A stretch of DNA of 64,000 nt from Rhodothermales bacterium (GCA_965116685.1 OZ220707.1:1446566-1510565); one strand, 5' to 3'. Numbered from the stretch's first letter, positions 3,025 through 26,957 are shown. Program-made: numbers and translations. Notes: generated by a model from the letters alone, not told the origin.

Positions 3025-3032
3025 AATTAACC
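3025..3032. repeat. 8-bp target-site duplication AATTAACC (flank of ISL3 copy A)
   Basis: Partner of 1615..1622. Confidence 0.9.
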
Positions 3033-7882: not shown

Positions 7883-8639
7883 ATGGTGGTAAGGGATTCA
7901 CAGGTTCCTAAGCGTATGACCCGTGTAATTCCCTTGATCCTTGTCCTTGCAGTTTCTCATACAACTGCTACACATGCACAATTTCTGGGATGCCCCCTGA
8001 TTGATCAGATCACGTTGGAGGACTGTCAGGTTCTGGAAAAACTCTTCTACGATACCGATGGATTTAACTGGCGGAATGTGCGCGGATGGCTTCGAACCAA
8101 TCAGCCATGTGACTGGTACGGGATTACTTGTCAATCTTCTGGCTGGCCCAGAGACATTATACATATTGATCTATCTGGAAACGACCTCACCGGTACACTT
8201 CCAGGGGATTTGGCTTTCCTTTCAGAACTGCGAATAATCCGCATTGATAATACCGGCCCAGGGGTCCGCCAGAAAAAACTGATCAATCAGATCCCGGCTA
8301 CGCTCGGAGATCTGGAACACCTGGAAGTTCTTATGCTCGGCAATAATGCCTTCACCGGTACGATCCCGCCAGAACTGGAAAACTTGACCAACCTTCGTGA
8401 ACTGAGCCTGGGAGACAATAAATTGGAGGGACCCGTACCCGAAAGATTTGGACAACTCACCGAACTGCAGCACCTTGATCTCAGTGGAAACAGCCTTGGC
8501 GGAGCGATCCCCGACTCCTTCCGTCACCTCATCAAACTTGAGCACCTGGATCTGAGTCAGAACCTCTTTAGCGGCACTCTTCCAACCTGGCTGGGAGATC
8601 TGAGCGCGCTCAAGTTTCTTGATGTCAGCAATAACATGT
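7883..8639 (+). pseudogene. Plant-type LRR, T9SS-sorted protein, 5' part (disrupted by ISL3 copy B)
   Basis: It has a signal peptide (MTRVIPLILVLAVSHTTATHAQ, likely start 7916) and a cap-like motif WRNVRGWLRTNQPCDWYGITC. This is followed by 24-residue repeats LxxLxxLxLxxNxLxGxIPxxL. The reading frame runs into the IS end at 8640. Confidence 0.88.
8632..8639. repeat. 8-bp target-site duplication TAACATGT (flank of ISL3 copy B)
   Basis: Identical 8-mers sit at 8632..8639 and 10042..10049, directly abutting the IS ends. Confidence 0.9.
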
Positions 8640-10041
8640 GGGGCTTCCCCTTTTTAAGTGGGTTCGGAGTCAGAACTGAGATGAACCACGATGCGATTGA
8701 ATAGATTCGGAATGGATTTCTTTATTTATTTTGGGTCTGTTTTTGGAGTTCAAATCAAATATTTCATTCACCATGAGTGTACGTATTCAAGATATCAATC
8801 GATTGTTAGGGATTCAGTCTCCGTGGGAAGTCTCGGAGATCAAGCAAGATGATGCAACGCAGCTGGCTGAGATCCATGTGATTTGTTCGGAGGGTTCGGT
8901 ACTTCGCTGTCCTGAATGTAACAAAGTTTGTCCTGGCTACGACCATCGTCTTCGGAAATGGCGTCATACGGATATCTGCGAGTATCAGACGAGTGTGGTT
9001 GCGAAAGTTCCTCGGGTGGAGTGTTCGGAGCATGGAATCAAGACGGTTTCGGTGCCCTGGGCGGATGAGCGCGTGCGTTTTACGACGGCATTTGAAGCGA
9101 AGGTCATTCACTGGTTGCTGGATACCACCAGTATTTCAACGGTGGCCTCCAGGATGGGAGTCAGTTGGACGATGATTGCCAACATTATGGAGCGTGCGGT
9201 AAATCGGGGACTGGACCGCAGAAAAGACGAACCCATTGCCCATATCTGTGTCGATGAGACCTCTTATAAGAAAGGGCACAATTACATTACTGTGGTGTCC
9301 AATCCAGACACGGCCACCGTGCTGTATGTCGGGGAGGGTCGGACAATGGCCAGTTTGAACGGGTATTATGGTGGACGTTCTGCGGAGCAGTTGGACGCCA
9401 TTGAAAGCGTCAGTATGGATATGTGGCCCGCGTATATCAGTGCCACGAAATTGTGGGTTCCCGGCGCGGATAAAAAGATTGCATTTGATCGTTTTCATGT
9501 GGCCAAATACATTGGAGATGCCGTGGATAAAGTCCGTCGGCAGGAGAACCGGGAATTGCGGAAAGAAGAAATCTACGATCTCACTGGAACCAAGTATGAT
9601 TGGCTGACCAATCCGAAGAATATGTCGACGCGGCAAAAGAAACGATTCAACCAGTTAAAGACCAGTTCGCTGAAAACAGCTCGTGCGTGGGCCATCAAGG
9701 AATTGTCCCAGAAGTTATGGCATTATGTCCATCCCACATGGGCACTCAAAGGATGGAAACGATGGCTGTCCTGGGCCATGCGTTGCCAACTGGAACCGAT
9801 GAAAAAAGCGGCGAAAACCATCAAGAATCATTTGTGGGGGATTATCAATGCAGTGGTCTTAAAGGTCAGCAATGGCCCCGCCGAGAGCATCAACAGTCGC
9901 ATCAAATCCGTCAAAATTCGTGCTCGTGGATTCCGAAACAAACAGCGGTTTACCAATGCAATCTACTTCTATCTCGGCGGACTGGATTTGTATCCAGTAG
10001 GCTTCCAAAATCATACTACCCACACGTAAAAGCGAAGAGCC
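8640..10041 (+). mobile_element. ISL3-family insertion sequence, copy B (1402 bp), inverted relative to copy A
   Basis: It has the same terminal sequences and length as copy A. The transposase is 432/432 aa identical, and all shadow ORFs are also identical, which implies near-complete nucleotide identity. Confidence 0.93.
8773..10029 (+). CDS. ISL3 family transposase
   Basis: Identical to the copy A protein. The maximal ORF starts at 8731 (TTG); the ATG is at 8773. Confidence 0.93.
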   Translation: MSVRIQDINRLLGIQSPWEVSEIKQDDATQLAEIHVICSEGSVLRCPECNKVCPGYDHRLRKWRHTDICEYQTSVVAKVPRVECSEHGIKTVSVPWADERVRFTTAFEAKVIHWLLDTTSISTVASRMGVSWTMIANIMERAVNRGLDRRKDEPIAHICVDETSYKKGHNYITVVSNPDTATVLYVGEGRTMASLNGYYGGRSAEQLDAIESVSMDMWPAYISATKLWVPGADKKIAFDRFHVAKYIGDAVDKVRRQENRELRKEEIYDLTGTKYDWLTNPKNMSTRQKKRFNQLKTSSLKTARAWAIKELSQKLWHYVHPTWALKGWKRWLSWAMRCQLEPMKKAAKTIKNHLWGIINAVVLKVSNGPAESINSRIKSVKIRARGFRNKQRFTNAIYFYLGGLDLYPVGFQNHTTHT

Positions 10042-10049
10042 TAACATGT
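10042..10049. repeat. 8-bp target-site duplication TAACATGT (flank of ISL3 copy B)
   Basis: Partner of 8632..8639. Confidence 0.9.
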
Positions 10050-11296
10050 TTTCTGGAACCCTACCCGAAGCGTTGATCCAACTGGATCAACTCGTATGGC
10101 TCTCGCTTGCCGACAATGATCTGGAAGGGACCCTTTCTCTCACAACAGCTACATATGCCGCCGGGATCACCAATTGCCATCTGGAAGGAAATCGCATATG
10201 CATTCCAGATGCACCCCCCTATGCAAGCCTTGATCAGGTTTGCTCACTCTCGCAGCAGAGTACATGCAAAGTATGTCAGGGCGTAGATTGCCAAAGCCTT
10301 GAGTCTGCTTACTTTGAGACCGATGGAGCATCCTGGGTACAAAGTGAGGGGTGGCTTGCCAGCTCAGATCCATGTGACTGGCACGGCATAAGCTGTCACA
10401 ATAAAGAGATCACTAGCATCGTCCTGCCGGATAACCGTCTCACAGGAGATCTGCCCCAATCCTTGTCCTCTCTATCAAACCTCCAGGTACTTGACCTCTC
10501 AAAAAACAACCTGCAGGGAGATGTCCCTCAAGAATATGCCGGGCTGAGTCAACTCATGACCCTTGATCTCAGCAACAATGAGCTCACCGGAATACTGCCC
10601 CTGCAAGTGGCAGCACTTGGCGCAACATTGAATAAATGCAACCTGTCAGAAAATGCTGGAATCTGCCTACCTGACAACGCCGCGTATGCAGCACTGAATG
10701 CAAACCCAATCTGTCAATTGCCACTGCGCAAAGATTGTCTGGGCTATGACTTTGTCGTATTCACTGAGTTGCACGCAATCCCAGAGGAGCGGTCTATTCA
10801 ACTTGCATGGTCCACAACCCAGTCATCGATTGGAATTACGTTTGTGATTGAACGCATTGAGCCACTTGTAATCCTTGCTGAAGTGCCTGGAAGTGTACAA
10901 GTGCCAGCCAGCTTTACCCATACCGTTGACAACCTGGACCCCGGCCAGTATTCATTTCAAATTCGGCAGGTTACCGCGTCCGGTGCCTATAGAGTTTCCG
11001 AACCCGTCACCGTTGAACTCTATGCTGAAGACTTGGTGATCTCCACTCCTTATCCGAATCCCTTCTCTGCCGAGACCGCGCTTGAGTTTACCTCTGGAGC
11101 ACACGGATCGGTCGTAATTGCATTGTACGACCTTGTCGGGCGCCGAATCCAGACACTTTTCAGCGGGACACCTGTACTGCACCAGCCTACACGCATTGTA
11201 CTTGACGCGAAAGGTCTGCCCAGCGGGACCTACTTCATTCACAGCTTCCTTGACGGTCGTCCGATCTCCTCGGAGCGAATCACACGCATCCGGTAA
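10042..11296 (+). pseudogene. Plant-type LRR, T9SS-sorted protein, 3' part
   Basis: It continues the LRR (MFSGTLPEALIQLDQLVWLSLADNDLEGTL). A second cap-like motif SEGWLASSDPCDWHGISC is followed by more LRRs. The C-terminal T9SS sorting domain reads PYPNPFSAETALEF...VIALYDLVGRRIQTL...LPSGTYFIHSFLDGRPISSERITRIR. Removing the IS plus one TSD copy gives an uninterrupted 2004-nt (667-aa) ORF. Confidence 0.88.
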
Positions 11297-13890: not shown

Positions 13891-15570
13891 CTATGATTCT
13901 TCCACCAGTGTAATCGTCCCGGCTGGTATGGCGGTGCGGTTCATAAAGCTGCCGTTTGGCCACTGCACCTCCAGTGAATCCACGGATTCTGCCATGCCCA
14001 GACCAAACAGTGGCCACCGTTGGCTCTGAGAAAGATAACTTGTACCAGTCCGCACGTAGCGCTCCTGCCACTTCCCATTCACATGCACGCGAACACGGCT
14101 TCCGACCGCATCCCGATTGCTTTTGGAGCCGATTAATTTTACGGTCAATGAATTCCCGTACGACGTGTCATTACGCCAGAGATGTGCGGGGCCACCGTTC
14201 TCCGTAATAAGCAGGTCCGGGTCCCCATCTTGATCATAGTCTGCCCACGCCGCCCCCCGGGCCACCTTGAATTCTGAAAGAACACCGGTCGGCTCCGCCT
14301 CAGAAAACTGCCCATTTCCCTCATTGACATACAGCTGCGTCCGTTGCCGAAATGTAACTCCTTCCTCTACCTCTCCAATATCTTCGGTGATGTGGCCATT
14401 GGCAGTGACTAGATCCAAATCTGTATCCAGATCAAAATCAGCCAACAAAAGTCCGAAGGTCAGTGTACGCAGGCTGGGCCGTCCAATCTGAGAAACCGCT
14501 GCCCGTTCGGTAAAGATTCCGTTGCCCATATGTCGATAGACACCCACCATTTCACCTGAAAAATGGCCTATAAATACCGTCTCTCCGCCGGTATGGTCCA
14601 CCACCCCAATGTCAATCCCCATTCCGGCGCGTGCACGCCCGTTTTCATCGAACGCAATCCCACTGACCACACCCTTCTCAAGAAAGGTCCCATCCCCTTG
14701 GTTTTCAAAAAGAAGGTCCCGCTGGGTATCATTCGCAACAATCAAATCCGGCCATCCATCCCGGTTGTAGTCCATACTCGCAGCCGCAAGCGTTTTGCCA
14801 GGTAAACCGGCAAAATCATCTGATCTCTCTTCAAATGTGCCGTCCCCTTGGTTCCGGTAAAAGCGTCCCGTAATTCCCTCATACTGCTCTGGGGTACAAT
14901 AGGACTTCTTATCCCCTACCCGTGTACAGTAAATATCCTCTTCGGGAGTCCAGTGAACATAATTCCCGATGTATAAATCCAGAAACCCATCCCGATCTGC
15001 ATCCAGAAACACACTGGCACTGCTCCATTCGCTATATCCTCCCAGTCCTGCTTCCTGACTGACTTCGCGAAAAACTCCTCCTTCATTACGAAGCAGAAGG
15101 TTCTCATACAACGCCGTCACAAACACATCGGAGTCGCCGTCATTATCGTAATCTGCAACACTCACACCAAATGCATAGCTCTGAAGAGATTGTAGACCGG
15201 CCTCTTGGGTCGCTTCTGCGAATTGTCCACTCTCGCTACCGCGATACAGACGGATTGAGGGTTGTGTAATCGCTCCCTGCGATGAAAACACACTACCGGA
15301 GATCAGCAAAATATCCAGGATTCCATCTCCATCATAATCTAGAAAACCTCCTCCTGCCCCCATTGTCTCTGGAAACCATTTTTCTCCAAAAGCTCCAGTT
15401 TCGTGCAGGAAGTCTCCCAGACCGGCAGACGCGGTCATGTCTGTAAATGCAATCTGAGGAGCCTGCTGAATCTCTTCTGATACCTGCGGATCAGGGGTGG
15501 ATTGACTACATGCTCCGAAAACGAAAAGCAGGATCATGCCCTCAATTCGGATAAGTCCCTTACAATTCAT
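13891..15570 (-). CDS. CRTAC1-like FG-GAP/VCBS repeat protein with ASPIC/UnbV-type C-terminus, paralog 3
   Basis: Lipobox LLFVFGAC. It has repeated DYDxDGxxD / VANDTQRD calcium-binding FG-GAP-like motifs. The C-terminal segment is LTVKLIGSKSNRDAVGSRVRVHV...RTGTSYLSQSQ. Confidence 0.85.
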   Translation of the reverse strand: MNCKGLIRIEGMILLFVFGACSQSTPDPQVSEEIQQAPQIAFTDMTASAGLGDFLHETGAFGEKWFPETMGAGGGFLDYDGDGILDILLISGSVFSSQGAITQPSIRLYRGSESGQFAEATQEAGLQSLQSYAFGVSVADYDNDGDSDVFVTALYENLLLRNEGGVFREVSQEAGLGGYSEWSSASVFLDADRDGFLDLYIGNYVHWTPEEDIYCTRVGDKKSYCTPEQYEGITGRFYRNQGDGTFEERSDDFAGLPGKTLAAASMDYNRDGWPDLIVANDTQRDLLFENQGDGTFLEKGVVSGIAFDENGRARAGMGIDIGVVDHTGGETVFIGHFSGEMVGVYRHMGNGIFTERAAVSQIGRPSLRTLTFGLLLADFDLDTDLDLVTANGHITEDIGEVEEGVTFRQRTQLYVNEGNGQFSEAEPTGVLSEFKVARGAAWADYDQDGDPDLLITENGGPAHLWRNDTSYGNSLTVKLIGSKSNRDAVGSRVRVHVNGKWQERYVRTGTSYLSQSQRWPLFGLGMAESVDSLEVQWPNGSFMNRTAIPAGTITLVEES

Positions 15571-17230
15571 CTTCTAAAAGGTGTATCGTGGTATTGATCG
15601 GCAATTCATGAACCCAGGTCTCCAGTCCACTTGGCCAACGGACATAGAGACTGTCTGGCATCTCCTGAAGCCCAAAAAAGGCGGCAGACTCCGAATGGGA
15701 CAAATAGCTGGAACCCGTACGGATACGCCGCACCTGCATGTGTCCACGACTCCACAGATGGAGCTGCGCGCCGTACGCATTGCGATTGCTCTTGGTACCT
15801 GTGAGTTCAACCCGGAGCCAAATCCCCCCTTCCGACTCATTCTGCCATACATGTGCGAGGCCATTGTTTTCGACCAGAAGAACATCCAGGTCACCATCAC
15901 GATCATAGTCCCCCGTGGCCAGACCCCGACCGACAAAAGACGCTGCCAGTGGCCCGCTTGCCGGCATCTCTGTAAACGTGCCTGCTCCGTCATTCAAAAA
16001 TAATTGCGGACGCTGCCGAAAGGTGACTCCGTCCACAATCTGAGCAATGTGTGTCTGTACATGACCATTGGCAATCAGTACGTCCAGATCTGTATCCAGA
16101 TCAACATCAAAGAGTACCAGACCAAAGGTGAGGGTCTTCAGGCTGGGCTGCCCCATCCTGGATGCAGCTGCACGATCATTGAATATGCCATTGCCTCTAT
16201 GCTGATAGACCCCTACCATCTCATCTGAAAAGTTGCCGACAAAGATAGATGGCTCCCCCGAGTCATCCACTACACCAACATCAACGCCCATACCAGCTCG
16301 CGGCTTCCCATGCTGATCATACGCGACCCCACTGCGTCTACCCGTTTCTACAAACGTCCCGTTGCCTTGATTCATAAAGAGCATGTCCCGCTCTGTATCG
16401 TTTGCAACGAACACATCGGTCCACCCATCCTGATTTGCATCCAGTTCCGCAACCCCTAACGTTTTGTCCCGACCCGCATCGACTCCCGACAGAAATCCCG
16501 CCTGCTCGGTAAGATCTGTAAAGGTGCCATCTCCATTATTCTGGTAGTACCGACTGGCAATCCCATCATACAACTCAGGCGTACAGTATACCTTACTGCC
16601 ACCGAAACTGCAGTAAATATCATCTTCGGGCGTCCAGTGAACATACGTTCCAACATAGAGATCCAGGAATCCATCACGGTTTGCATCAAAGAACATTGCA
16701 CTCGTACTCCACTCACTGACCAAGCCTACCTTTGCCGTCTGTCCAATTTCCTCAAAAACGCCATCCGTGTTACGCAGTAGCAGATCTTCTTCCAAGGTGG
16801 TCACATAGATATCCTCATCCCCGTCGTTGTCATAATCCCCGATGGTCATTCCCAGACTGTACGCGCGAAGCAGCGCTAAGCCGGCCGGCTGGGTCACCTC
16901 ATCGAATTGTCCATTACCAAGATTGCGAAACAGTCGCAGAGCCGGGTGTGCTCCAAGTGGAGGCTCCCCCTCAAATTCTCCTCCTGTCGCCACAAGAATA
17001 TCCTGCCAGCCATCCTGGTCGTAGTCAAAGAATGCCCCTCCTGCACCGACAATTTCCGGTGCCCAGGAATTCCCGAACCCGCCGTGATTATGCACAACCC
17101 CTCCGAATCCAATCTCCTCGGTCACGTCCGTAAACAGCGTGCTCACTGCGTCTGGATCCCGGGATGCCTCTCCGGCACATCCTGCAATCAGGGTGATCCC
17201 CACATATGCTGCAATCACACTCCGCATCAA
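15560..17230 (-). CDS. CRTAC1-like FG-GAP/VCBS repeat protein with ASPIC/UnbV-type C-terminus, paralog 2
   Basis: Lipobox ITLIAGC. It has the same architecture and motifs as its neighbours. Its stop overlaps the next start by 11 nt. Confidence 0.85.
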   Translation of the reverse strand: MMRSVIAAYVGITLIAGCAGEASRDPDAVSTLFTDVTEEIGFGGVVHNHGGFGNSWAPEIVGAGGAFFDYDQDGWQDILVATGGEFEGEPPLGAHPALRLFRNLGNGQFDEVTQPAGLALLRAYSLGMTIGDYDNDGDEDIYVTTLEEDLLLRNTDGVFEEIGQTAKVGLVSEWSTSAMFFDANRDGFLDLYVGTYVHWTPEDDIYCSFGGSKVYCTPELYDGIASRYYQNNGDGTFTDLTEQAGFLSGVDAGRDKTLGVAELDANQDGWTDVFVANDTERDMLFMNQGNGTFVETGRRSGVAYDQHGKPRAGMGVDVGVVDDSGEPSIFVGNFSDEMVGVYQHRGNGIFNDRAAASRMGQPSLKTLTFGLVLFDVDLDTDLDVLIANGHVQTHIAQIVDGVTFRQRPQLFLNDGAGTFTEMPASGPLAASFVGRGLATGDYDRDGDLDVLLVENNGLAHVWQNESEGGIWLRVELTGTKSNRNAYGAQLHLWSRGHMQVRRIRTGSSYLSHSESAAFFGLQEMPDSLYVRWPSGLETWVHELPINTTIHLLEDEL

Positions 17231-18981
17231 TTAGTTGGCTTGCCAGGCATTGGGCGAGTGCTCCAGCCCTCCTGTCCCTGAGTAATATGGGCCTCAATAT
17301 TCACAGGAAGATCATACAGGACCTGCATCTGCCCGTCAGGCCAACTGACCAGCATACTGTCTACAACTTCAATGTCCAGCATTCCGAATGCGGCAACGAT
17401 TTCATTCTGAGACAGGTAACTGCCCCCTGATCGAATCCGGCGCTCTTGAACCTGCTCGCCAGCATGTACCCGAATGTGTGCCCCAAAGGCGTCACGGTTT
17501 CCATTGGTACCCGTAACACTCACCCGGAGCCAATTTCGACCCATCACATCGTTGCGCCATAGGTGTGCTGGACCATGGTTCTCCACAATGAGAAAATCCA
17601 GGTCTCCATCCCGGTCATAATCTCCATAGGCTGCGCCACGGGCAACCATCTCCAGCGCAAGTGGGGGAGTCGTTGAAGCGGGAACTTCCTCAAACAAACC
17701 CGCTCCATCATTCGCGAACAGCTGTGCCCGCTGCTCATAGGTGATTTTATCCTGCCCAATCAGCCGGTCGGGGTAAACGTGTCCATTGGCAACAAACAGA
17801 TCCAAATCTGTATCCAGATCTACATCCACGAGCATGAGCCCAAACGTGAGCGTGTTGAGGCTGGGCTGACCAATCTGGGATCTTGCAGCACGATCTGCAA
17901 ATAGACCATTGCCCAGATACCGATAGACACCTATCATTTCTGTGGAAAAGTTGCCCACGAACACCGAGGGGTGACCAGTCCGATCCACCACACCAATATC
18001 AATGCCCATCCCGGCACGGGCTTCCCCATGCTCGCTGAATGCAATGCCGCTCTGGACACCGCGCTCAGAAAACGTACCATCTCTATTATTTAGAAACAGC
18101 AGATCTCCCTCTCCATCATTCGCGACCACGAAATCCGGCCAGCCATCCTGATTAAAATCCCATTCTGCCATTCCAAGTGCTTTTCCGAGTGAATGATACA
18201 CGCCGGCTTCCTGGGTCCGGTCCACGAATGAGCCATCCCCTCGGGCTTCATAATAACGACTGGCCTGCCCCTCATAGTCCGCAGGAATACAATAGAGCTT
18301 TTCAACTCCTCCTTCCGGACAAAATTTATCGGTTTCCGGGGTCCAGTCCGCATAATTCCCCACGTACACATCCAGCCATCCATCCCGATTCCCATCAATC
18401 CACAGGGCAGAACTGCTCCATTCATCCTCTAAACTGAGTCCTGCATCGACTCCCCGGCGCTCGAATACCCCCCCTTTATTTTCCAAGAGCATATTTTCAT
18501 TCAGGTTGGTGATCAGAATATCCTGATCCCCGTCATTGTCATAATCCGCTGTCGCCACTCCAAGGGTAAACGCATCAAGATCTCTCAACCCCACCTGGTC
18601 AGTCACATCTATGAATGTGCCATCCCCCATATTACGGTACATCCATAGGGGCTTGTACCACGGATGTGGAGCCCGATCCCAGTATCCCCCCCCCGTAAGT
18701 AGTATATCCAGCCAACCATCTCCATCATAGTCAATAAAACCTGCTCCCGAGCCCATCTGCTCCGCATAATACTTTTTGCCATCCTCCCCATTATCATGCC
18801 GGAACGTGCCAAGACCCGCCTCATCGGTCACCTCGGTGAATTGGATGAATCCCTGTTCAGGCACCGGATCCTCCGATATCTGACAGCCAAATATCCCAAA
18901 CGAGACTACAACGAGGACTCCTATCCTGCAAACCACAGCCAAATCAACCCAATACCTTAGGCTGATAAAGAGACTCTTCAC
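17227..18981 (-). CDS. CRTAC1-like FG-GAP/VCBS repeat protein with ASPIC/UnbV-type C-terminus, paralog 1
   Basis: It has the same architecture as the other two paralogs. The maximal ORF reaches 19200, but the first 73 codons look non-coding. A GTG at 18981 gives (M)KSLFISLRYWVDLAVVCRIGVLVVVSFGIFGC with a lipobox. There is an ATGA overlap with paralog 2. Confidence 0.8.
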   Translation of the reverse strand: MKSLFISLRYWVDLAVVCRIGVLVVVSFGIFGCQISEDPVPEQGFIQFTEVTDEAGLGTFRHDNGEDGKKYYAEQMGSGAGFIDYDGDGWLDILLTGGGYWDRAPHPWYKPLWMYRNMGDGTFIDVTDQVGLRDLDAFTLGVATADYDNDGDQDILITNLNENMLLENKGGVFERRGVDAGLSLEDEWSSSALWIDGNRDGWLDVYVGNYADWTPETDKFCPEGGVEKLYCIPADYEGQASRYYEARGDGSFVDRTQEAGVYHSLGKALGMAEWDFNQDGWPDFVVANDGEGDLLFLNNRDGTFSERGVQSGIAFSEHGEARAGMGIDIGVVDRTGHPSVFVGNFSTEMIGVYRYLGNGLFADRAARSQIGQPSLNTLTFGLMLVDVDLDTDLDLFVANGHVYPDRLIGQDKITYEQRAQLFANDGAGLFEEVPASTTPPLALEMVARGAAYGDYDRDGDLDFLIVENHGPAHLWRNDVMGRNWLRVSVTGTNGNRDAFGAHIRVHAGEQVQERRIRSGGSYLSQNEIVAAFGMLDIEVVDSMLVSWPDGQMQVLYDLPVNIEAHITQGQEGWSTRPMPGKPTN

Positions 18982-19266
18982 CTTTTTTATTGGAAAGGTC
19001 AATTTCAGCCTCGCAAGGGGGACTTCCCAGGTATCAACTTGGTTCATGATCGCTTTCATTTGATCAAGCACCCCAATCATGAGATTGGTCAGTACACAGA
19101 CGGGAAGTAAGACATCCCACGGAATTGAACACGGTGGATTTATGTTCCTGAAAAACAAAGAAAAACGAACACAAAAGCGAGAGAAAATTTTCAGTGTCAT
19201 TCAAGAGTTGAACTTTCAGGTCAGCTTCGCCTAGCTATCGCGGGAAAAATTCAAGATCATCTTTGG

Positions 19267-19623
19267 ATGCGATTCACCCCCTGGAGCAAAGAAATATTTC
19301 GAGTTCTGGTTCGCAAGTATGAAAGAGGTGGCCATAAAGGAGATCATGAAAGTGATCAAGATATCCAAATGACACGCCCGAGGGTTTGCAATGTACTTTG
19401 CCATGAACAGTCCAACGCCAGAGTGGAACGACTTAACGAGACACTTCAGGTGGTCAAAACGGCCGGGAAAAGATACGGAAAATTTAAAAACTTCCGGTCT
19501 ATAATTCTTCTTTTTCTGCGAAGATCTAAACCTGTATCCACAACATTCACGGTAGGGCCGAGTCCTTTAATCTCTACGTTCATTCCGATTTGAATGAGTG
19601 AAAACAGAAAGCGGAAGATAAGA
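19267..19623 (+). pseudogene. Possible ISL3-like transposase C-terminal relic with degenerate right end
   Basis: SNARVERLNETLQVVKTAGKRYGKFKNFRSIILLF resembles the ISL3 C-terminal motif SNGPAESINSRIKSVKIRARGFRNKQRF. Downstream, AGAAAGCGGAAGATAAG resembles the IS end TAAAAGCGAAGAGCC. The match is weak and was made by eye. Confidence 0.4.
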
Positions 19624-19798
19624 CCTGCAATCAGAATCACGCGGTCACTGATTCATCTGGATAAGTACTTGGAGGAGTCGAAAGTTCCAACTAGAAAGTT
19701 GCTCCTTGGTGAGACAGAGCGACGAACTGTAAAGCCTCACTGAAGATGTAGGTTTCACAATTTGAGTAATTGAGTGAAAGCCTGGGGGAAATGTAACC

Positions 19799-20626
19799 TC
19801 AGTATCGTCTCTCTCGCCGCTCCTCATACGGCACATACTGTCGCTCCTTAAGCGTGCCCGCCAATGCTTGTGATGCAGTTTCCTGCAACCGTTCTAACCA
19901 CTTTCTGTCAAGGATCTCCCGCTTTGCCATTTCCGCATTGTCATTTACCAAGATGTTTGCCATTTGAAGCAATGCGCTTTCCCGAATGGACGCGGATAGA
20001 CGGATAGCATCATCCATTAAGAAGAAATCAGAGCCCACGATATACCTTGTAGACACTTGTTTCATACGTTGCCGCTCTAATGTACTGAATGTGTCTAAAC
20101 CCCAGTAATCCACCATCATACGGAGAGTATAGAGACAGTTGCCGATCTGGTGTCGGGTAATACCTGGCAGTGGCGCTTCGACAAACCTCAAAACGGGCTC
20201 AAATGCCTGTCGTCCAAAATCAACCATTGCATCGCCCGGTCCACACCAAGGTAAAAGTACTGGAATTGTGGCGGGATCTCGCAACTTATATACTTCTTCT
20301 ACCAGGGCCAACGCTCGCTCTGCAGCTCCTTCACTCGTGTACATGGGCACTGAATCATCTTCGCTTAGCTCAATTCTGCGAATTCGCTTGATTTCATTAT
20401 CAAGTGCCTTAATCAGTGCAGAATTTACCTCTGGAGTGCGCTGATCCGGTGAGAGCGACAGATAGCCATCAATTCCGCTGAACGATGTCGCATGATCCTT
20501 GCTGACTAACAGCTCAATGACTTCCTCTGGGGAGGGGATGCCAGGTCTTTGTGCATTTGATTCCCATACAGGAAGAGGGGTAAGCAGAAGCGTAACGATA
20601 AAAGGAAGAGCAATTCTTGTTTTCAT
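19799..20626 (-). CDS. Secreted hypothetical protein, paralog P1 (candidate periplasmic immunity protein)
   Basis: The start MKTRIALPFIVTLLLTPLPVWESNAQ (Sec signal) at 20626 is preferred over 20737. The first roughly 100 aa are nearly identical to P2, and the remainder is about half identical. Confidence 0.8.
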   Translation of the reverse strand: MKTRIALPFIVTLLLTPLPVWESNAQRPGIPSPEEVIELLVSKDHATSFSGIDGYLSLSPDQRTPEVNSALIKALDNEIKRIRRIELSEDDSVPMYTSEGAAERALALVEEVYKLRDPATIPVLLPWCGPGDAMVDFGRQAFEPVLRFVEAPLPGITRHQIGNCLYTLRMMVDYWGLDTFSTLERQRMKQVSTRYIVGSDFFLMDDAIRLSASIRESALLQMANILVNDNAEMAKREILDRKWLERLQETASQALAGTLKERQYVPYEERRERRY

Positions 20627-20767
20627 GATCCGAGGGAGGATAGGATCACTTTTGAATGTGAAGATGACAATCAGGATACATGCCCCATGGGAGTGGGGCC
20701 AAATGTAGGTTTTCTGCAATTTTGTATAGGTCATCATAATAAGTCCTGTTACAACTGGTTCGGATAT
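20310..20767. repeat. 458-bp near-identical direct repeat, copy 1 (offset 1013 bp from copy 2)
   Basis: About 10 mismatches to 21323..21780 by eye. It covers the 5' 317 nt of P1, the 19-nt spacer and an orphan copy of the last 41 codons of the M15 peptidase gene. Confidence 0.85.
20646..20767 (-). pseudogene. Orphan 3' fragment of the M15 peptidase gene (last 41 codons)
   Basis: It translates IRTSCNRTYYDDLYKIAENLHLAPLPWGMYPDCHLHIQK*. The tail of the upstream gene reads IRTSCNRAYYDHLHKIAENLRLNPLPWGTYPDCHLHIQK*. The fragment lacks the SxHxxGxAxD part. Confidence 0.7.
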
Positions 20768-20817
20768 GCATATTCCGATGATGTGGGTAGAGGTACAGGG
20801 GATTGGCCCTTTGACAC

Positions 20818-21639
20818 CTACGGTATACGCTGCCCAGTCGGCTCATACTGACGCTCATTTAGCGTGCCCATGAGTGCCTGCCTAACAGTTTCCTGCAAAC
20901 GCGCTCGAGCTCTAGCTCTATTAACAGAACTATGTTTCGCCATCTCTGTGTCGCTATTCAGCAATGCATTTGCCATGTGTAATACCTCAACTTCCTGAAG
21001 TGACGATGCTAGACTGATCGCTCTATCCATCGTGGAGTTCTCAAAATCCAATATATACTGAACAGCTACTCGCTTCATTCGCTCCCGCTCTGACGTATTG
21101 AACGAACTTACCCCCCAGTAGTCTACCATCATCCGAAGCGTCAATAACCTACTTCCAACAATACGACTCATTGTGCCTGGTGGAGGATTTTCAACAAAAC
21201 TCAAAACAGGTCCGAAGGCTAGTCGCCCAAAATCAATTATTTCATCCTGAAATCCACCCCATGGCAATAGCAGCGGAATTGTGGAAGGATCCCTTAGATA
21301 TATTACATATTCCACTAGGAACAACGCTCGCTCTGCATCTCCTTCACTCGTGTACATGGGCACTGAATCATCTCCGCTTAGCTCAATTCTGCGAATTCGC
21401 TTGATTTCATTATCAAGTGCCTTAATCAGTGCAGAATTTACCTCTGGAGTGCGCTGATCCGGTGAGAGCGACAGATAGCCATCAATTCCGCTGAACGATG
21501 TCGCATGATCCTTGCTGACTAACAGCTCAATGACTTCCTCTGGGGAGGGGATGCCAGGTCTTTGTGCATTTGATTCCCATACAGGAAGAGGGGTAAGCAG
21601 AAGCGTAACGATAAAAGGAAGAGCAATTCTTGTTTTCAT
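20818..21639 (-). CDS. Secreted hypothetical protein, paralog P2 (candidate periplasmic immunity protein)
   Basis: 273 aa, with the same signal peptide as P1. It starts 19 nt after the reconstructed stop of the M15 lipoprotein gene. Confidence 0.85.
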   Translation of the reverse strand: MKTRIALPFIVTLLLTPLPVWESNAQRPGIPSPEEVIELLVSKDHATSFSGIDGYLSLSPDQRTPEVNSALIKALDNEIKRIRRIELSGDDSVPMYTSEGDAERALFLVEYVIYLRDPSTIPLLLPWGGFQDEIIDFGRLAFGPVLSFVENPPPGTMSRIVGSRLLTLRMMVDYWGVSSFNTSERERMKRVAVQYILDFENSTMDRAISLASSLQEVEVLHMANALLNSDTEMAKHSSVNRARARARLQETVRQALMGTLNERQYEPTGQRIP

Positions 21640-21780
21640 GATCCGAGGGAGGATAGGATCACTTTTGAATGTGAAGATGACAATCAGGATACGTGCCCCA
21701 TGGGAGTGGGTTCAAACGTAGGTTTTCTGCAATTTTGTGTAGGTGATCATAATAAGCCCTGTTACAACTGGTTCGGATAT
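21323..21780. repeat. 458-bp near-identical direct repeat, copy 2
   Basis: Partner of 20310..20767. It covers the 5' end of P2, the spacer and the true 3' end of the M15 peptidase gene. Confidence 0.85.
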
Positions 21781-23019
21781 CAACAGCCCTGCCCAACATA
21801 TGATAGCTGTCTTTCACTCCACCGACTGCACGGTTCCCCTTGGGACATCGATAGCGGAGGTCAGCACGATTGGTCGTCCATCCAAATCGCGAAGTTGCTG
21901 AATCCCATTCTTGATATTTGCCTTCATGATACCATAGGGGTTGTGCTTCCCGTATTCGCTTCCATTTCTCCAGTTTCCCATAAATTCCCTCCAGGAAAAA
22001 CTCCTAGTTGCCCCCCCGGTCATAAATTCAACGCAAACAGGCGTGTAGGCTACTTTCAACTCATCGTATTCTGCAATGAGGTCACAGATTTTTTTGTCCG
22101 TGCAGAGACATTCTTCAATTTTGTCGTATGGATCTGGATTTGCGTCTACATCGCTCTCACCACCCTGGCCATCACCGTCATCATTCTCATCTCCATCGCT
22201 TTCACCAGAACCTATTCTGGGGGTGATATCTGTAGAAAAGGAAGCACATGTCAGCTCTAATCTCTCAATAAACGGTAAACACGATTCCCCATAAATATAA
22301 TCATGCCCAACTCTACAGATATAAGCAAAATCAATATGGCTCACCCAGCAATAAGTAATCGTATCATTCTTGCCTGAAGTTGGCTGTTGTGTCAGTGTCA
22401 TAGTCGTCTCTTTTGGATCTTGTCCGGGGGCATATACTGTGGTCTTGATCGATTCGTATCCGATCGTATACTGTGCAACGATCATCCGATTGTTTCCAAA
22501 ATCCCCGGACAACCACTGGACAACATAGTCCCTGAATAGAGAATCGTCCAGGTCCAGGGCAATGAATTCAACCAACCGTCCGGAAATCCTTTGCCCTTGC
22601 CTATCCACATCAGCCACTAGGGTTCGTACCACGGATAAGCCAGAGTGGTTGGGACTAGTGGCAGTTCCCTCAAGAAGGGTTGCTGCAACATACCCACCGG
22701 TTGCATGATCCCATGTTTCGATCTGATCCCAGTCGGGTGAATGCTGTTGTACCATGGCTGCAAGGATCGTAGCAACCGTACTGTCATTACCTATCTTGTT
22801 ATATGAACCATTCGGCAGCGAAGGAATAAATATCTGGCCTTCTTCCAAAGCAGTGGTATACCACTGCTTGACCGTTCGAATTCGTTTGGATTCTTCTTCA
22901 GGTGAGCCTATATCTGGCACGAATGAGCTGTCACAGGACGCAAACAAAAGCAGTCCAAAGAGTAGTAAGATCTTAAGTTCGCGGCGCGGAACAAGTAGAG
23001 ACGCTCTATTGAAAACCAT
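21659..23019 (-). pseudogene. Lipoprotein with C-terminal LAS/M15-type zinc D-Ala-D-Ala peptidase domain, disrupted by a 1-nt frameshift near 21857
   Basis: The likely start is MVFNRASLLVPRRELKILLLFGLLLFASC at 23019. The track ORF ends ...FSWREF...DLDGRPIVLTSAIDVPRGTVQSVE* at 21814. The adjacent frame reads RYRCPKGNRAVGGVKDSYHMLGRAVDI...DCHLHIQK* down to 21659. SYHMLGRAVD matches SxHxxGxAxD exactly (codons 21808..21779). Confidence 0.75.
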
Positions 23020-23387
23020 ATCCTGATTGGGTGAACCTGTGAATGAAAACGGCATGTAAAAAGTCAGTTGGGAACTGGAGTGAGAGGATTGCCTCAATAG
23101 GCCGTGACCTCTGCCTGAATGAGCATTTCGGCTAACACAACGATCCCCTCGGAATTCCGGCCGCTTGAAGCAATGTAGCGGAATATTCGGGGCTTGGGAT
23201 CACCCATTCCTCGTAGGTTGGGCGGGATTCATGGTTTTGAGGGATGGGTTTTTATCGGACATGACTGGACGGCTCGTTTATGAGCGTCCCATGCCCATCC
23301 ATCCCCCCAACCAATTCACCATTACGGCAGACCCTGCACCAAGCTTTCCACAAGAAATCCATACGATATATCTTGTCCATCAGAGCC

Positions 23388-23475: not shown

Positions 23476-24543
23476 CTATAGACCAATCTGAAGTCCAATC
23501 CGATTGACTGCGCCAAACAGGCCGAAGTCGGTGTAGGCATAATCCGCTCCAACGTTGAATCCTTCAAATGCATACCGAAGTCCTGCACCGGCGCTGAACC
23601 CTTGCTCTTCACTGACACCCAACTGCTCGAATCCTCCACGTAACGATACCATATCCATGAAGGTGTACTCCAGGCCAAAGCGAACATGCTCTGCAAAGTC
23701 ACGTGGACGCTGCGCATCCACATGCAATTGAATGCTGTGCATATCCGGATCAATCGCGGTAAGATCCATCAGATTCATGGACATCCCAATCTGGAAGGTC
23801 AAGGGTAACTCAAACCGTTCGCGTACATAGATCTGCTCTTGCCCGAAATTACGGGCACTCATACCGATCACCAGACTCTCAAATCCGGTTGCGTACACAA
23901 TACCAAAGTCGTACGCGATCGTCCGGGTATTGTAATCTTCTGTCGTAGCAATGACTCCCGTATCAAAATCCTGTGAGGTTGCAAACCCGGAGCCGATATC
24001 CTGGAAGACAAGCTTTATATTCGCACCGGCCGAGAAGCGGTCACCGAAGGAGCGGGCATACCCGAGCCCGACTGCCATCGCCGTAGGGCTGTACGTGCCG
24101 TTTTCAATAAATCCATCATCGTTATTTGAGCGAATCGTGTGATGAAAATCACCGTAGTCAACGGACACGAGCGAGACGCCCACGACACCATAATTACCAG
24201 CCGAACCTGGACGGAAAGCAACGCTGGCCTGCGTGTACCCAATGTCTGCAATGAACGACATATTCGTCGCTGCTGCGGACATGCGCCCGGGCATAAAGCC
24301 CATACTCGCAGGATTATAGAACATCGACACCGAAGAACCTGACAGTTCCGCCGTCATGGCAGAACCAATCGCAGAAGCCCGTGCATCCACGGATATGCTG
24401 AGAAACTTCATGCCAGCCTGGGCACGCTTATCTGTTTCCACCTCCGTATCCGACGTTAGGCCTGCCTGGCCATAAGACATTGACACACCAACAAACACAA
24501 GTGCAAGGATGGGCAATGTTGAAAAGAGAGTATACTTTTTCAT
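23476..24543 (-). CDS. PorV/PorQ-like outer-membrane beta-barrel protein
   Basis: It has a signal peptide and the motif AGMKFLSISVDARASAIGSAMTA...MFYNPASMG, characteristic of the PorV/PorQ (FadL-like) family. An amphipathic beta-strand pattern runs throughout. Confidence 0.65.
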   Translation of the reverse strand: MKKYTLFSTLPILALVFVGVSMSYGQAGLTSDTEVETDKRAQAGMKFLSISVDARASAIGSAMTAELSGSSVSMFYNPASMGFMPGRMSAAATNMSFIADIGYTQASVAFRPGSAGNYGVVGVSLVSVDYGDFHHTIRSNNDDGFIENGTYSPTAMAVGLGYARSFGDRFSAGANIKLVFQDIGSGFATSQDFDTGVIATTEDYNTRTIAYDFGIVYATGFESLVIGMSARNFGQEQIYVRERFELPLTFQIGMSMNLMDLTAIDPDMHSIQLHVDAQRPRDFAEHVRFGLEYTFMDMVSLRGGFEQLGVSEEQGFSAGAGLRYAFEGFNVGADYAYTDFGLFGAVNRIGLQIGL

Positions 24544-24611: not shown

Positions 24612-26957
24612 CTACCGGATTACCGTGAATTTCTGAATTGCCTCATCTCCTGTATCGTTGTCTGTAATGACCGCGATATAAATGCCACTGACCAGTAGCT
24701 GTCGAGACGTAGTCGTAAGATTCCAAAGTTCATCACCACTTCCATCGCTGTGATCAATCGTATGGACCAGTTCACCGATTTCGGTATAGACCTTGATCGT
24801 GCAATTCCCAGGAATGTTGAAGAACGCCACCCGATCTTCCTGATCAAACCGTATGGTTGGATCTGCGCCAAGGTTCACCGGATTCGGCACAATACGTGCA
24901 TCTGCCACCGTCCCTGTTGCTACTCCGTAGGGAGGACGCTTGAGGTTCACCGGCAAGTACGTCTGTGTGAGATAGCGGGAGCTGCGAAGCGGAGTTCCGT
25001 TCGGAGTTCCGTTAATCCCATCGGGGTCAACGGGCTGCGGCTCACCAACCGCCTGCAGGTAGTAGTAATAATCTGTCCCCCGGTTCAGGTCGGTGTCTTC
25101 GTACGACGTTGCTCCTGCACCAAGATCCGCAATGAGATCATAGCCGCAATGCGCCTGCTGTGCTGCAGAAGGATCTGCCGGATCTGCCGCATTTGAGCCA
25201 TCGGTAAACTGCCTGGTATCAAGATTCATGCAGTTCTGGTAAATGTAGTCCTCAAACCGAGAAGTTCGGTACAGTTTCCATGCCGTACGATTGGGACCAC
25301 CGGCCGGGTTAGTCCAAGCGATTTCAACCTTGTCTGGCTGACCTACAACCGTGAAACTCGTAGGAGAATGAGGCGCCTCTGGAACCGGATAGGTCGTCAT
25401 ATTATTACTGGCCGCATAGAGGTTGATCGCCCGCTGCTGAACAGTCAGTAATGAGTCTCTCGCAGTGACAACCCATTGATTCTTGGTCATTTCCTCCAAG
25501 CCATGGCCAAACGTGTCAAACATGCCGTCACCATCTACATCCATTTGATTGATGCTAAAGTCGAAGGTGCCTGTTTGAATCATTCCATCCCCATCCGCAT
25601 CGTACCGGATCAGCTGTGTGTTCCGGTCCTGTCCACCGAGTTTGAAGGCTCTCCCAATCCGCACCGCCGCATCAATGGACAACCCGCCAACCCCTTCGAC
25701 TACAACAATTCGGACACTCTCTCCCGGCGCAAAATCATAAGGACCGTAGGCCGTGGTGATTGCATGTCCACCCTGTTTCCCGGTAGAAGAGTCATTCTCG
25801 GGCTCCCAGAAAATTCCATCCGGCTCAATCCGATCCGCATAATGAGGGAACATATGGGCAGAGCCGCCTTCAATCCGGTCAGGATTTTCCCGTGTCCGGA
25901 TGCCCCACTCATAATAATCTTCGTGCGGGCTACCGTCCGATGTCAGTGCCTCATCCTGATCCATGAATCCCATGGTGGATGGCTGACAGGTATTAATCGT
26001 AGCGGTCGTACAGCGGATGTACGTGGGGTCCGTCGGAGAATTATCAGCATGAATCGTAGCACGACCTATGTAGGTGGCTCCTGCCAAACGCCCGATCGTG
26101 TCTCCCTGAGGCCAATCATTTCGTTGGTTAAACAGTGATGCACCAAAACGATCATAGACGCCTTGGGTTTCAGGGTCAATTCCAATCCAGAGATACTGGG
26201 ATGTAAACGAGAGGGGATAATCTGCATGCCCGTCTCCCACAACATCAATCATGCTGAACTTGCCCCAGACCTGGCCGCCACTGACCGCCCAAGCCCCCTG
26301 CAAATTCCCTCTGAGCCGATGGATCCGGAAGAAATAGGTCTCACTGAGGTTCTGATCCGGCAACTCAATATCCTCATCTTCATCGGTATTGCCAGTATTG
26401 GTGTAGGTGTACTCTATCACATTCGAATCATCGTGCACCTGATTCACATAGGCGTACGCTTTTCGATCCACCGTAACACCGATGTAGGTATTGTGGATGT
26501 TGTGAATCATCCGGTCAGCTGGAAGGGATGGGTCAATCTCGTCGATGACCGCTACATTGTCAAAAGACAGTGTTCCATTGACTTCTACAACCGTATCCTC
26601 CGTCCTGCTGATCAAACGGTTCTGTATTGGATACGTCACATCTGCACCGGAGGTACGCGGGCCAATTCGGGCCACGAAGTACGGATAATCTTGTCCGTCT
26701 GCAGCGGTCCAGTTCTTTGTTCCAAGCCAGAGTGCTCTAGCACGGTAGTGACTGCTGTTTCGCAGGATGGCAGGCCACTCCATGCCATCCGGGGCAGAAG
26801 AGTTAACCTCGTCCTGTGCCCCCGACTCGACGTACGTACTGTGAAATGTGCCGATGTCCAACCATTGAGCGGTGAACTGCGACATGGCAACGGTCGGTGT
26901 GAGCATCAGCAAAAACGTGCCAATGGTTAACGCCTTGAAATGGTATCTGATTTTCAT
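24612..26957 (-). CDS. Large secreted hypothetical protein with T9SS-type C-terminal sorting domain
   Basis: 781 aa, with signal peptide LLMLTPTVAMSQ. It contains DxDGDG calcium-type motifs (YDADGDGM, VDGDGMFD). The C-terminal roughly 85 aa are IVPNPVNLGADPTIRFDQ...CTIKVYTEIGELVHTI...SGIYIAVITDNDTGDEAIQKFTVIR. Confidence 0.8.
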   Translation of the reverse strand: MKIRYHFKALTIGTFLLMLTPTVAMSQFTAQWLDIGTFHSTYVESGAQDEVNSSAPDGMEWPAILRNSSHYRARALWLGTKNWTAADGQDYPYFVARIGPRTSGADVTYPIQNRLISRTEDTVVEVNGTLSFDNVAVIDEIDPSLPADRMIHNIHNTYIGVTVDRKAYAYVNQVHDDSNVIEYTYTNTGNTDEDEDIELPDQNLSETYFFRIHRLRGNLQGAWAVSGGQVWGKFSMIDVVGDGHADYPLSFTSQYLWIGIDPETQGVYDRFGASLFNQRNDWPQGDTIGRLAGATYIGRATIHADNSPTDPTYIRCTTATINTCQPSTMGFMDQDEALTSDGSPHEDYYEWGIRTRENPDRIEGGSAHMFPHYADRIEPDGIFWEPENDSSTGKQGGHAITTAYGPYDFAPGESVRIVVVEGVGGLSIDAAVRIGRAFKLGGQDRNTQLIRYDADGDGMIQTGTFDFSINQMDVDGDGMFDTFGHGLEEMTKNQWVVTARDSLLTVQQRAINLYAASNNMTTYPVPEAPHSPTSFTVVGQPDKVEIAWTNPAGGPNRTAWKLYRTSRFEDYIYQNCMNLDTRQFTDGSNAADPADPSAAQQAHCGYDLIADLGAGATSYEDTDLNRGTDYYYYLQAVGEPQPVDPDGINGTPNGTPLRSSRYLTQTYLPVNLKRPPYGVATGTVADARIVPNPVNLGADPTIRFDQEDRVAFFNIPGNCTIKVYTEIGELVHTIDHSDGSGDELWNLTTTSRQLLVSGIYIAVITDNDTGDEAIQKFTVIR

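Follow-up and report, generated by a model that had tools for sequence, protein, structure and literature searches.

In this study, we analyzed a module of the Rhodothermales bacterium genome GCA_965116685.1 that lies within a window of 64,000 nucleotides (nt) (OZ220707.1:1446566-1510565) and comprises an interrupted gene for a lipoprotein with a C-terminal M15 peptidase domain, hereafter the effector gene, and downstream genes for two secreted paralogs, P2 and P1, which are separated by an orphan copy of the peptidase tail. All of these features lie on the minus strand (table 1). The effector gene starts with the ATG at 23019, and its original frame ends at a premature TGA (21816-21814); this open reading frame (ORF) encodes a lipobox signal peptide (MVFNRASLLVPRRELKILLLFGLLLFAS-C, with the lipobox LLLFAS-C), the N-terminal domain that defines the family (N-domain), an acidic linker (GSGESDGDENDDGDGQGGESD), and the first half of the M15 domain. 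The rest of the domain was found in a neighboring frame, whose product, from 21856 to 21659, reads RYRCPKGNRAVGGVKDSYHMLGRAVDI...PDCHLHIQK followed by a stop, with 66 codons open. Insertion of a G between 21855 and 21854 changes TCCG^CTAT to TCCGGCTAT, that is, TCC-GCT-ATC to TCC-GGC-TAT, and the repaired frame yields VLTSGYRCPKGNRAVGG in the same register as all homologs, which align without gaps and at the lesion site all read (L/I/V)(T/S/N)SGYRCP. The repaired effector, which contains ...RPIVLTSGYRCPKGNRAVGG..., is 453 amino acids (aa) long. An earlier reading made from the sequence alone (the sequence-only reading) had described a lipoprotein ORF from 23019 with the lipobox LLLFASC, a stop at 21814, and a neighboring frame at 21856-21659, all of which was borne out by ORF and translation analysis; its reconstruction of the protein also held, except that the 454 aa it gave included the stop.

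We concluded that the toxin gene is dead in this genome, through a 1-nt deletion in the SGYR motif of the catalytic domain. Programmed frameshifting was ruled out: C-CGC-TAT is not a slippery heptamer, and the homologs encode the motif in one frame. An exact-match DNA search of the genome contigs revealed no second copy of the frameshift site with zero or one extra base. Because the shifted frame carries no further lesion, either the inactivation was recent or the deletion is an assembly error.

Table 1. Features of the effector-P module in the window.
Feature	Position	Strand	Basis
Effector gene, 5' part, original frame to the premature stop	21814..23019	-	ORF, translation, homologs
N-terminal "carrier" domain, mature residues SCDSS...LTCAS, ~233 aa	22240..22938	-	Profile search, AlphaFold2 (AF2), PDB fold search
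Gly/Asp/Glu-rich low-complexity linker from carrier to putative toxin domain	22120..22239	-	Linker at the same position in every family member
Lesion: one G missing from TCC-GGC-TAT (Ser-Gly-Tyr of the LTSGYRCP motif)	21854..21855	-	Translation, homolog alignment
Effector gene, 3' part, shifted frame (RYRCPKGN...HLHIQK-stop)	21659..21856	-	Open, no further lesion
Peptidase_M15_3 (LAS zinc peptidase), split by the lesion	21722..21996	-	PF08291, phrog_894, PDB 1lbu
P2, 273 aa, Sec signal peptide and predicted all-alpha ARM/HEAT-like solenoid	20818..21639	-	17-member family, AF2
Orphan copy of the last 40 peptidase codons and stop (HIRTSC...HLHIQK-stop)	20646..20768	-	33/40 identity to main tail
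P1, 275 aa, chimeric paralog	19799..20626	-	Clade-wise identity comparison
Tandem unit A (peptidase tail, 19-nt spacer, P2, 3' flank)	20767..21779	-	Self-comparison of the window
Tandem unit B	19790-20766	-	Offset of 1013 nt from unit A
Lower-G+C island holding the whole module (0.44-0.49 vs 0.51-0.55 in the flanks)	19200..23100	.	G+C profile

We then assigned the split catalytic domain. The repaired protein matched PF08291 (Peptidase_M15_3) over residues 342-433 with 55.4 bits (cut-off 23.2; E 7.4e-15), and the lesion lies inside this match, so that an M15/LAS profile does cover the shifted frame, a check that the sequence-only reading had proposed. The zinc ligands are kept, as H-x6-D (SYHMLGRAVD) and H-x-H (HLH), in the same register in all homologs; by score and by ligands the domain belongs to M15_3, with the reservation that its coding sequence is interrupted and lies in two frames. 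The Streptomyces albus zinc DD-carboxypeptidase (PDB 1lbu) aligned with E 0.0075 over the GG(F/Y)R...S.H..G.A.D motif, and the MepK model NF053624 gave 26.2 bits against an equivalog cut-off of 185 with partial model cover, which indicated that the effector is not a MepK equivalog. The M15 domain would be expected to cleave peptidoglycan peptides. A PHROG search of the effector also matched the phage endolysin family phrog_894 (E 1.5e-16), which would suit the remnant of a prophage lysis cassette made up of an endolysin and accessory genes; however, no phage genes flank the module in the window or in the related loci, P1 and P2 had no PHROG match, and the N-terminal lipoprotein domain also occurs in front of C-terminal domains that are not lytic, and we therefore give this explanation almost no credence.

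The downstream genes form a tandem array. P2 starts 19 nt past the peptidase stop, and its signal peptide, which is predicted to be cleaved after SNA, is common to P1 and P2 (MKTRIALPFIVTLLLTPLPVWESNA/Q). The orphan tail begins ~49 nt past the P2 stop, has no upstream coding continuation, and shows 17/40 identity to the tail of L002, a related locus, as against 33/40 to the main tail. Self-comparison showed that units A and B are 94% identical over the peptidase tail and about 65-70% identical over the rest of P, with an exact 318-nt identity (21375-21692 = 20362-20679) that covers the tail end, the spacer, the signal peptide, and the first ~85 mature P codons. In residues 27-110, P1 shares 96% identity with P2 and 48% with P0010, the partner of the L002-clade M15; in residues 111-273, the values are 53% for P2 and 72% for P0010. 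P2, in turn, is of a single clade throughout, with about 70% identity to P0003 in both parts. This arrangement of tandem units, tails, and P paralogs is not a chance pattern. P1 is therefore a recombinant of two P clades, and the simplest history would be that a unit of tail and P was duplicated, followed by allele exchange or gene conversion, which would account for both the 318-nt identical tract and the foreign C-terminal two thirds of P1. The genome would then keep protection against two M15 clades, provided that specificity resides in the variable part of P. The sequence-only reading had noted the shared signal peptide and the diverged C-terminal two thirds of P1, in agreement with these values. 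It had also reported an orphan of 41 codons, 47 nt past P2, and called it an orphan toxin-tail cassette; the copy and the tail-P cassette are indeed present, but the tail comprises 40 codons plus the stop and is not a foreign tip, being of the same clade as the main tail, and the foreign part is instead the P1 C-terminus.

P1 and P2 had no match in Pfam, NCBIfam, PHROG, or PADLOC. The AF2 model of P2, built from a 17-sequence alignment, was an all-alpha solenoid with a predicted local distance difference test score (pLDDT) of 76.8, in which residues 1-27 were disordered, as fits a signal peptide. Its best PDB fold matches were ARM/HEAT repeat proteins, with E>=0.017 and template modeling (TM) scores <=0.35, which are weak and in no case significant, and Pfam HEAT matches in P relatives were below threshold and confined to a distant homolog from locus L011. 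Judging from the model, P appears to be a generic protein-binding scaffold without a known relative, consistent with the earlier description of P1 and P2 as a family without a known motif.

We addressed the distribution of P by database searches and locus analysis. Among 5.8 billion proteins, the P family formed 17 clusters, all unnamed and all from Rhodothermaceae or Rhodothermales metagenome-assembled genomes (MAGs). Exact-protein look-ups, together with a DNA-level scan of GTDB species genomes, provided 16 independent P loci, which were analyzed by tblastn. An M15_3 gene, or a recognizable remnant of one, was present directly upstream of P in 14 of the 16, separated by 14-22 nt where this was measured and overlapping P in L006; P was found without an M15 partner in L008 and L017. 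The expectation that P1 and P2 homologs would lie near hydrolase genes was thus confirmed. The genes around the modules vary, including a menaquinone (men) operon in L001, macAB in L002, sulfatases in L006, and others elsewhere, and further modules were found in defense islands with insertion sequence (IS) elements. These varied flanking genes, in conjunction with the low-G+C island in the window, indicated that the M15-P pair behaves as a mobile two-gene module.

The two genes of the pair differ greatly in their preservation. The effector was full length with a signal peptide in only three of the 15 assessable P-linked loci (L006/L007, L018, and L011/L030), whereas P was intact in 14 of 16 and broken only in L020 and L021. 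The 12 broken effectors carry lesions that arose independently. The window copy has lost 1 nt; L001 has an in-frame stop near codon 46 (...ESN-stop-IQTV...); in L014, the frame shifts within the N-domain; the 5' ends of the L002 and L019 effectors are degenerate (the strain variant L003 has a stop); in L004 (2562-5986), an insertion of ~2 kb that carries a 586-aa gene on the opposite strand splits the effector; L005, L015, and L021 show truncation with frameshifts; and L016 holds two degenerate M15 copies. These lesions bear on the possibility that the same toxin-immunity system is present in the window with its effector intact, the frameshift being an assembly or sequencing error, and that the module is an active pair with an additional orphan cassette. 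A single-base lesion in a GG dinucleotide, after which all the remaining codons are open and all catalytic motifs are kept, would fit such an error, as would the presence of the effector sequence on one contig only, with no independent copy. However, errors are not typical of runs of only 2 bases, and the many independent lesions of related loci (the L001 nonsense codon, the 2-kb insertion in L004, and the truncations in L005, L015, and L016) cannot all be errors; some of the assemblies with these lesions were built from short reads. We consider it unlikely. The earlier statement that the effector is frameshifted while both immunity candidates remain intact is in keeping with the observed deletion and with the open frames of P1 and P2.

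Orphan tail or immunity cassettes were observed in the window (20768-19799) and in L016, L005, and L015. In L005 (599-2933), a frameshifted M15 remnant is followed by an intact P gene (P0012) and then by an orphan gene of a second downstream family, Q, described below. L016 (1-2600) carries two M15 remnants and two intact P genes that have identical C-terminal but diverged N-terminal halves, which reverses the mosaic pattern of P1 and P2 in the window; a large SNF2-like helicase gene follows this array. The 586-aa gene in the L004 insertion was considered as a transposase, but it has no Pfam match and is unlike the L010 transposase, and it is called an insertion only; it may be an undescribed mobile-element gene.

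The effector belongs to a wider, polymorphic family. A search with the N-terminal ORF revealed, besides M15 proteins, proteins of ~610 aa that are alike only over the first ~260 residues, with 42-52% identity, and that continue with a Gly/Asp/Glu-rich linker, an Ig-like segment, and a HExxH domain. When a profile of the N-domain (~230 aa) was compared with 1.84 billion representative proteins, 95 clusters were obtained, all with the Gly/Asp/Glu linker, and all-against-all BLAST of the regions behind the N-domain distinguished at least eight unrelated C-terminal families: Ig+HExxH (26 representatives), M15 (20), DUF6973, a Reprolysin-like HEIEH zincin, and four singletons. One scanned member showed a NonGDSL-lipase-like Pfam match that was not assigned to a cluster. 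A GTDB scan, for which we used the N-domain alignment A3 because the broader alignment A5 was too diverse, identified 34 loci, all in Rhodothermales MAGs (some labeled only Bacteroidota), with up to four per genome. The N-domain has conserved Cys residues, and its AF2 model is confident (pLDDT 79.9; predicted TM score 0.80), an alpha/beta fold in which two long helices precede a mixed sheet; compared with PDB folds it had no match at E<=0.001 (best E 0.26), and a sequence search of the PDB with the HExxH C-terminal domain found nothing. In Pfam, NCBIfam, and PADLOC, the effector was matched only in its M15 domain, and the N-domain received no annotation. We found no description of the N-domain family or of DUF6973 in the searchable literature. 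The sequence-only reading had called the locus one of a type it did not recognize, which agrees with the lack of Pfam, NCBIfam, PADLOC, and PDB-fold matches for the N-domain and P. If our reading is right, the carrier domain, P, and Q are three new protein families.

The signal peptides of full-length members end in an invariant Cys-Asp, in the form C-D-(S/N/G) (22935-22940 in the window), with one further acidic residue at about +8. The lipobox of the window effector is canonical (L-F-A-S-C); about half of the family, in contrast, has H, R, or Q at the -1 position (LVLTHC, LLFARC), which is noncanonical for signal peptidase II. These residues could reflect either a lineage-specific sorting or processing signal or the presence of members that are not lipoproteins.

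The downstream gene follows the C-terminal domain. Among pairs with an intact effector C-terminus, the C-terminal cluster matched the downstream cluster in all cases: M15 with P (7/7), HExxH with Q (6/6), and DUF6973 with a small family (2/2). Q, a protein of ~210-270 aa with a signal peptide, is found after HExxH effectors in L010, L012, L029, L032, L037, L040, and L044, and profile comparison showed it to be unrelated to P. A divergent M15 effector (P0032; PF08291, 23.6 bits) is followed by a correspondingly divergent P homolog (hhalign E 1.5e-5 over 203 columns). In L022 (204-5781), two DUF6973 effectors, with a Fic-domain gene between them, are each followed by a protein of 128 or 129 aa without a signal peptide, and identity is 87% between the effectors but only 60% between the partners. 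Behind P0079 (L023), which has yet another type of C-terminal domain, lies an unrelated protein of 118 aa. Covariation with the toxin domain is an accepted genomic signature of cognate toxin-immunity pairs, and the L022 pairs make a toxin role likely for DUF6973. Because the downstream gene tracks the C-terminal domain and not the N-domain, these data argue against P as a partner of the carrier domain. Given their signal peptides, P and Q would protect in the periplasm, the compartment in which a peptidoglycan peptidase would act, and toxins active there would lead one to expect such signals on the immunity candidates of both the M15 and the HExxH type.

A chaperone specific for one C-terminal domain could likewise explain the strict adjacency and the covariation with that domain, and a helical-repeat fold is generic for protein binding; P might then be a dedicated chaperone, export factor, or activator for the folding or delivery of the M15 domain rather than an immunity protein. 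However, P is intact where the effector is dead or absent, and arrays contain orphan genes of the downstream families (L005, L008, L016, and L017), whereas a chaperone that has lost its client would be expected to decay. Moreover, diversification through mosaics, as seen in P, is typical of immunity specificity. We place very little weight on the chaperone explanation.

It is likewise highly improbable, in our judgment, that the effector is a housekeeping or conditional MepK-like lipoprotein autolysin that remodels its own cell wall with P as its periplasmic regulator or inhibitor. The M15_2 and M15_3 families do include MepK, the NCBIfam MepK model matched weakly, and periplasmic helical-repeat partners of wall hydrolases are known, as NlpI is for MepS, which counts in favor of such an arrangement. 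By contrast, the effector scores 26 bits where the MepK model requires 185; the modules are patchily distributed and occur in multiple copies amid differing gene neighborhoods; and one and the same N-domain is joined to unrelated warheads that are each followed by a gene of their own. P outlasts the enzyme gene, which in most cases is a pseudogene, and a low-GC island and IS elements flank the modules.

Taken together, the hallmarks of polymorphic toxins were observed, namely a shared N-terminal region with varied C-terminal domains, a downstream gene that switches with these domains, and orphan fragment and immunity cassettes. We consider it likely that Rhodothermales have an undescribed family of polymorphic lipoprotein toxins with immunity proteins, of which the locus is a decayed member. 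Comparative genomics strongly supports the putative toxin-immunity relationship, and the two intact downstream genes for secreted proteins most likely encode antidotes to the M15 toxin. P2 is the candidate cognate periplasmic immunity protein, and the C-terminal two thirds of P1 match the P clade of a different M15 clade. At present, the locus is most likely an immunity-only cassette that guards against the M15 toxins of neighbors. An effector-immunity locus had been the proposal of the sequence-only reading, and the M15 profile match, the linkage to hydrolase genes, the polymorphic architecture, and the switching of partners with the C-terminal domain all speak for it.

We propose that an intact effector would be exported by Sec and lipidated at the conserved Cys, and that the lipid would anchor it in the outer membrane, where the ~230-aa N-domain would carry the toxin. 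It could reach neighboring cells via the cell surface, outer-membrane vesicles, or membrane transfer. The flexible Gly/Asp/Glu linker would then present the C-terminal M15 zinc peptidase, which would cut peptide stems or cross-links of the target peptidoglycan in the periplasm, so that unprotected cells would lyse. In the producer and its kin, the Sec-exported, ARM/HEAT-like P would bind and block the peptidase in the periplasm. A lipid-anchored toxin that acts in the periplasm would need no further translocation after membrane transfer.

Several points weigh against this reading. Toxicity, neutralization by P, and transfer between cells are steps that we infer from the sequences, and the delivery route is pure inference. 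No marker of a secretion system, no domain for receptor binding, and no known signal for export were found in the effector: when the full protein was scanned with Pfam, NCBIfam, and PADLOC, there was no PAAR, VgrG, MIX, Rhs, XVIPCD, FHA/TPS, or type IX secretion system (T9SS) C-terminal domain, and its C-terminal end is formed by the peptidase. The published surface-export signals of Bacteroidota, which follow the lipidated Cys, are CS(D/E)2, K-(D/E)2, and Q-A-(D/E)2 (PMC6222051), and the C-D-S-S-F of the effector is unlike these signals, which were defined in another phylum. The noncanonical -1 residues leave lipidation of the family as a whole uncertain. The P loci were partly found via intact P, which biases the sample, and the DNA-level scan gave the same asymmetry; pseudogenes may also be generally common in these symbiont MAGs. 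Finally, the chimeric P1 might be nonfunctional, and the frameshift of an effector present on a single contig could be an assembly error, as discussed above.

The closest known architecture appears to be that of SitA/SitI, the polymorphic lipoprotein toxins of Myxococcus that are delivered by TraAB outer membrane exchange (PMC5562445, PMC8546572). Both systems combine a signal peptide with a lipobox (noncanonical in about half of the present family), a family-defining N-terminal domain (the "escort" of SitA), a disordered linker, a swappable toxin, and a downstream immunity gene, and both show several loci per genome, association with mobile DNA, and orphan or decayed copies. In contrast, the family described here belongs to the phylum Rhodothermota and SitA to Myxococcota, and TraA/TraB are known only in myxobacteria; for the present family, no exchange machinery like TraAB is known, although no search for TraAB was made in these MAGs. 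The SitA escort domains, which fall into six families, are ~375 aa and the N-domain ~230 aa, and no database link joins them, a statement made without direct comparison to SitA sequences. Moreover, SitA toxins are cytoplasmic nucleases with cytoplasmic immunity, whereas the two dominant warheads here, M15 and HExxH, are accompanied by immunity candidates with signal peptides, which would hence be periplasmic. Membrane transfer alone would therefore bring a lipid-anchored toxin to the compartment in which it is to act.

Periplasmic wall hydrolases with a periplasmic immunity protein encoded directly downstream are also found in the Tae/Tai, Tlde1/Tldi1, and X-Tfe/X-Tfi pairs (10.1101/2020.02.18.954545, PMC10933484). 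Unlike these type VI and type IV secretion system effectors, the module has no PAAR, VgrG, MIX, Rhs, or XVIPCD in the protein or nearby; the protein has its own Sec/lipoprotein signal, which their cargo lacks; and the M15_3 domain and the ARM/HEAT-like immunity fold differ. The orphan cassettes of contact-dependent inhibition (CDI) and Rhs systems and the acquired interbacterial defense (AID) clusters of Bacteroidales (10.1101/471110, 10.1101/2025.05.03.651265) resemble the window in their repeated toxin C-terminal fragment with immunity downstream, in immunity kept without toxins, and in mosaics built by recombination. Here, however, the orphan piece is 40 codons of the same clade, the divergence lies inside P1 and not in the toxin tip, and there is no associated recombinase or integrase. 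With other LAS/M15 peptidases (1lbu, MepK/YcbK, and phage M15 endolysins), the effector shares the catalytic core, including H-x6-D, H-x-H, and GG(F/Y)R...GG..S.H..G.A.D, and it differs from them in that a lipoprotein carrier domain is joined to this core and a secreted protein serves as its dedicated partner. Bacteriocins of the ColM and pesticin types (PMC5821083) are likewise polymorphic toxins of modular build, breach the wall from within the periplasm, and are countered by periplasmic immunity, but they are soluble nonlipoproteins with receptor-binding and translocation domains and TonB/Tol import, and they show no homology. Polymorphic toxins are known as a kind, and the new elements would be the carrier domain, the immunity families, the lineage, and the combination of a lipoprotein carrier with periplasmic warheads.

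A broader proposal, which we advance only tentatively and regard as possible, is that Rhodothermales possess a platform free of any secretion system, in which a lipid-anchored carrier of new fold hands M15, HExxH, lipase-like, and other periplasm-acting warheads to neighbors via the outer membrane or vesicles. Such a platform would be a functional counterpart, in the Fibrobacteres-Chlorobi-Bacteroidetes superphylum, of the myxobacterial toxins of outer-membrane exchange; under the same tentative proposal, a sponge-associated arms race would have largely collapsed to immunity-only loci, with recombining P genes as a stored defense repertoire. If the main reading is right, lipoprotein-borne polymorphic toxins would extend beyond myxobacteria to a phylum without a described weapon of such kind, and they would provide a simple test case for how a toxin reaches the periplasm of a rival without a dedicated injection machine. 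The excess of dead toxins over live immunity genes would amount to natural data on antagonism decaying to defense in sponge communities, and P with M15 would represent a new inhibitor-enzyme pair for a cell wall peptidase.

The surroundings of the module were also annotated. Directly upstream of the effector, a gene at 23476-24543 (-) encodes an outer-membrane protein of the PorV/PorQ family (NCBIfam, 181 bits against a cut-off of 90), and next to it lies a 781-aa gene (24612-26957, -) with no Pfam match and a weakly T9SS C-terminal-domain-like end. A link between the effector and type IX secretion was rejected, as the PorV/PorQ neighbor is not conserved in the other loci and the effector has no T9SS C-terminal domain; for lack of such conservation, we treated the neighborhood on this side as coincidental. 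On the downstream side, immediately next to the module, three tandem FG-GAP/ASPIC (UnbV) paralogs of 559, 556, and 657 aa occupy 13891-19200. A short ORF past P1 (19267-19593, +), whose C-terminal motif resembled the end of an ISL3-type transposase, was considered as an ISL3 transposase remnant, and the idea was dropped, as tblastn with two ISL3 transposases was nonsignificant and Pfam gave nothing.

Mobile elements were present both in the window and at a related locus. Two ISL3 copies (1623-3025 and 8639-10041) of 1403 nt, each with a 432-aa transposase, are 100% identical, inverted, and 5.6 kb apart. The first abuts a truncated DUF4249 gene (903-1607), and the second appears to split a leucine-rich repeat (LRR) gene into an LRR part (7883-8704) and a part with LRR, fn3, and a T9SS C-terminal sorting domain (10046-11296). 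ISL3 was therefore recently active in this genome, and inversion between the copies is possible. In L010 (6255-13575), an HExxH effector and its Q gene lie between two 576-aa DDE_Tnp_1 transposase genes in direct orientation, in a composite-transposon-like arrangement, and this bracket sits in a defense island with AbiEi/AbiEii, SLFN/AlbA_2, and an ISL3 transposase. Elsewhere in the window, three direct repeats of ~300 nt that are 88-90% identical (55148-56481) lie inside the minus-strand ORFs 51606-55481 and 55514-58591, and they probably encode repeated domains of giant surface proteins.

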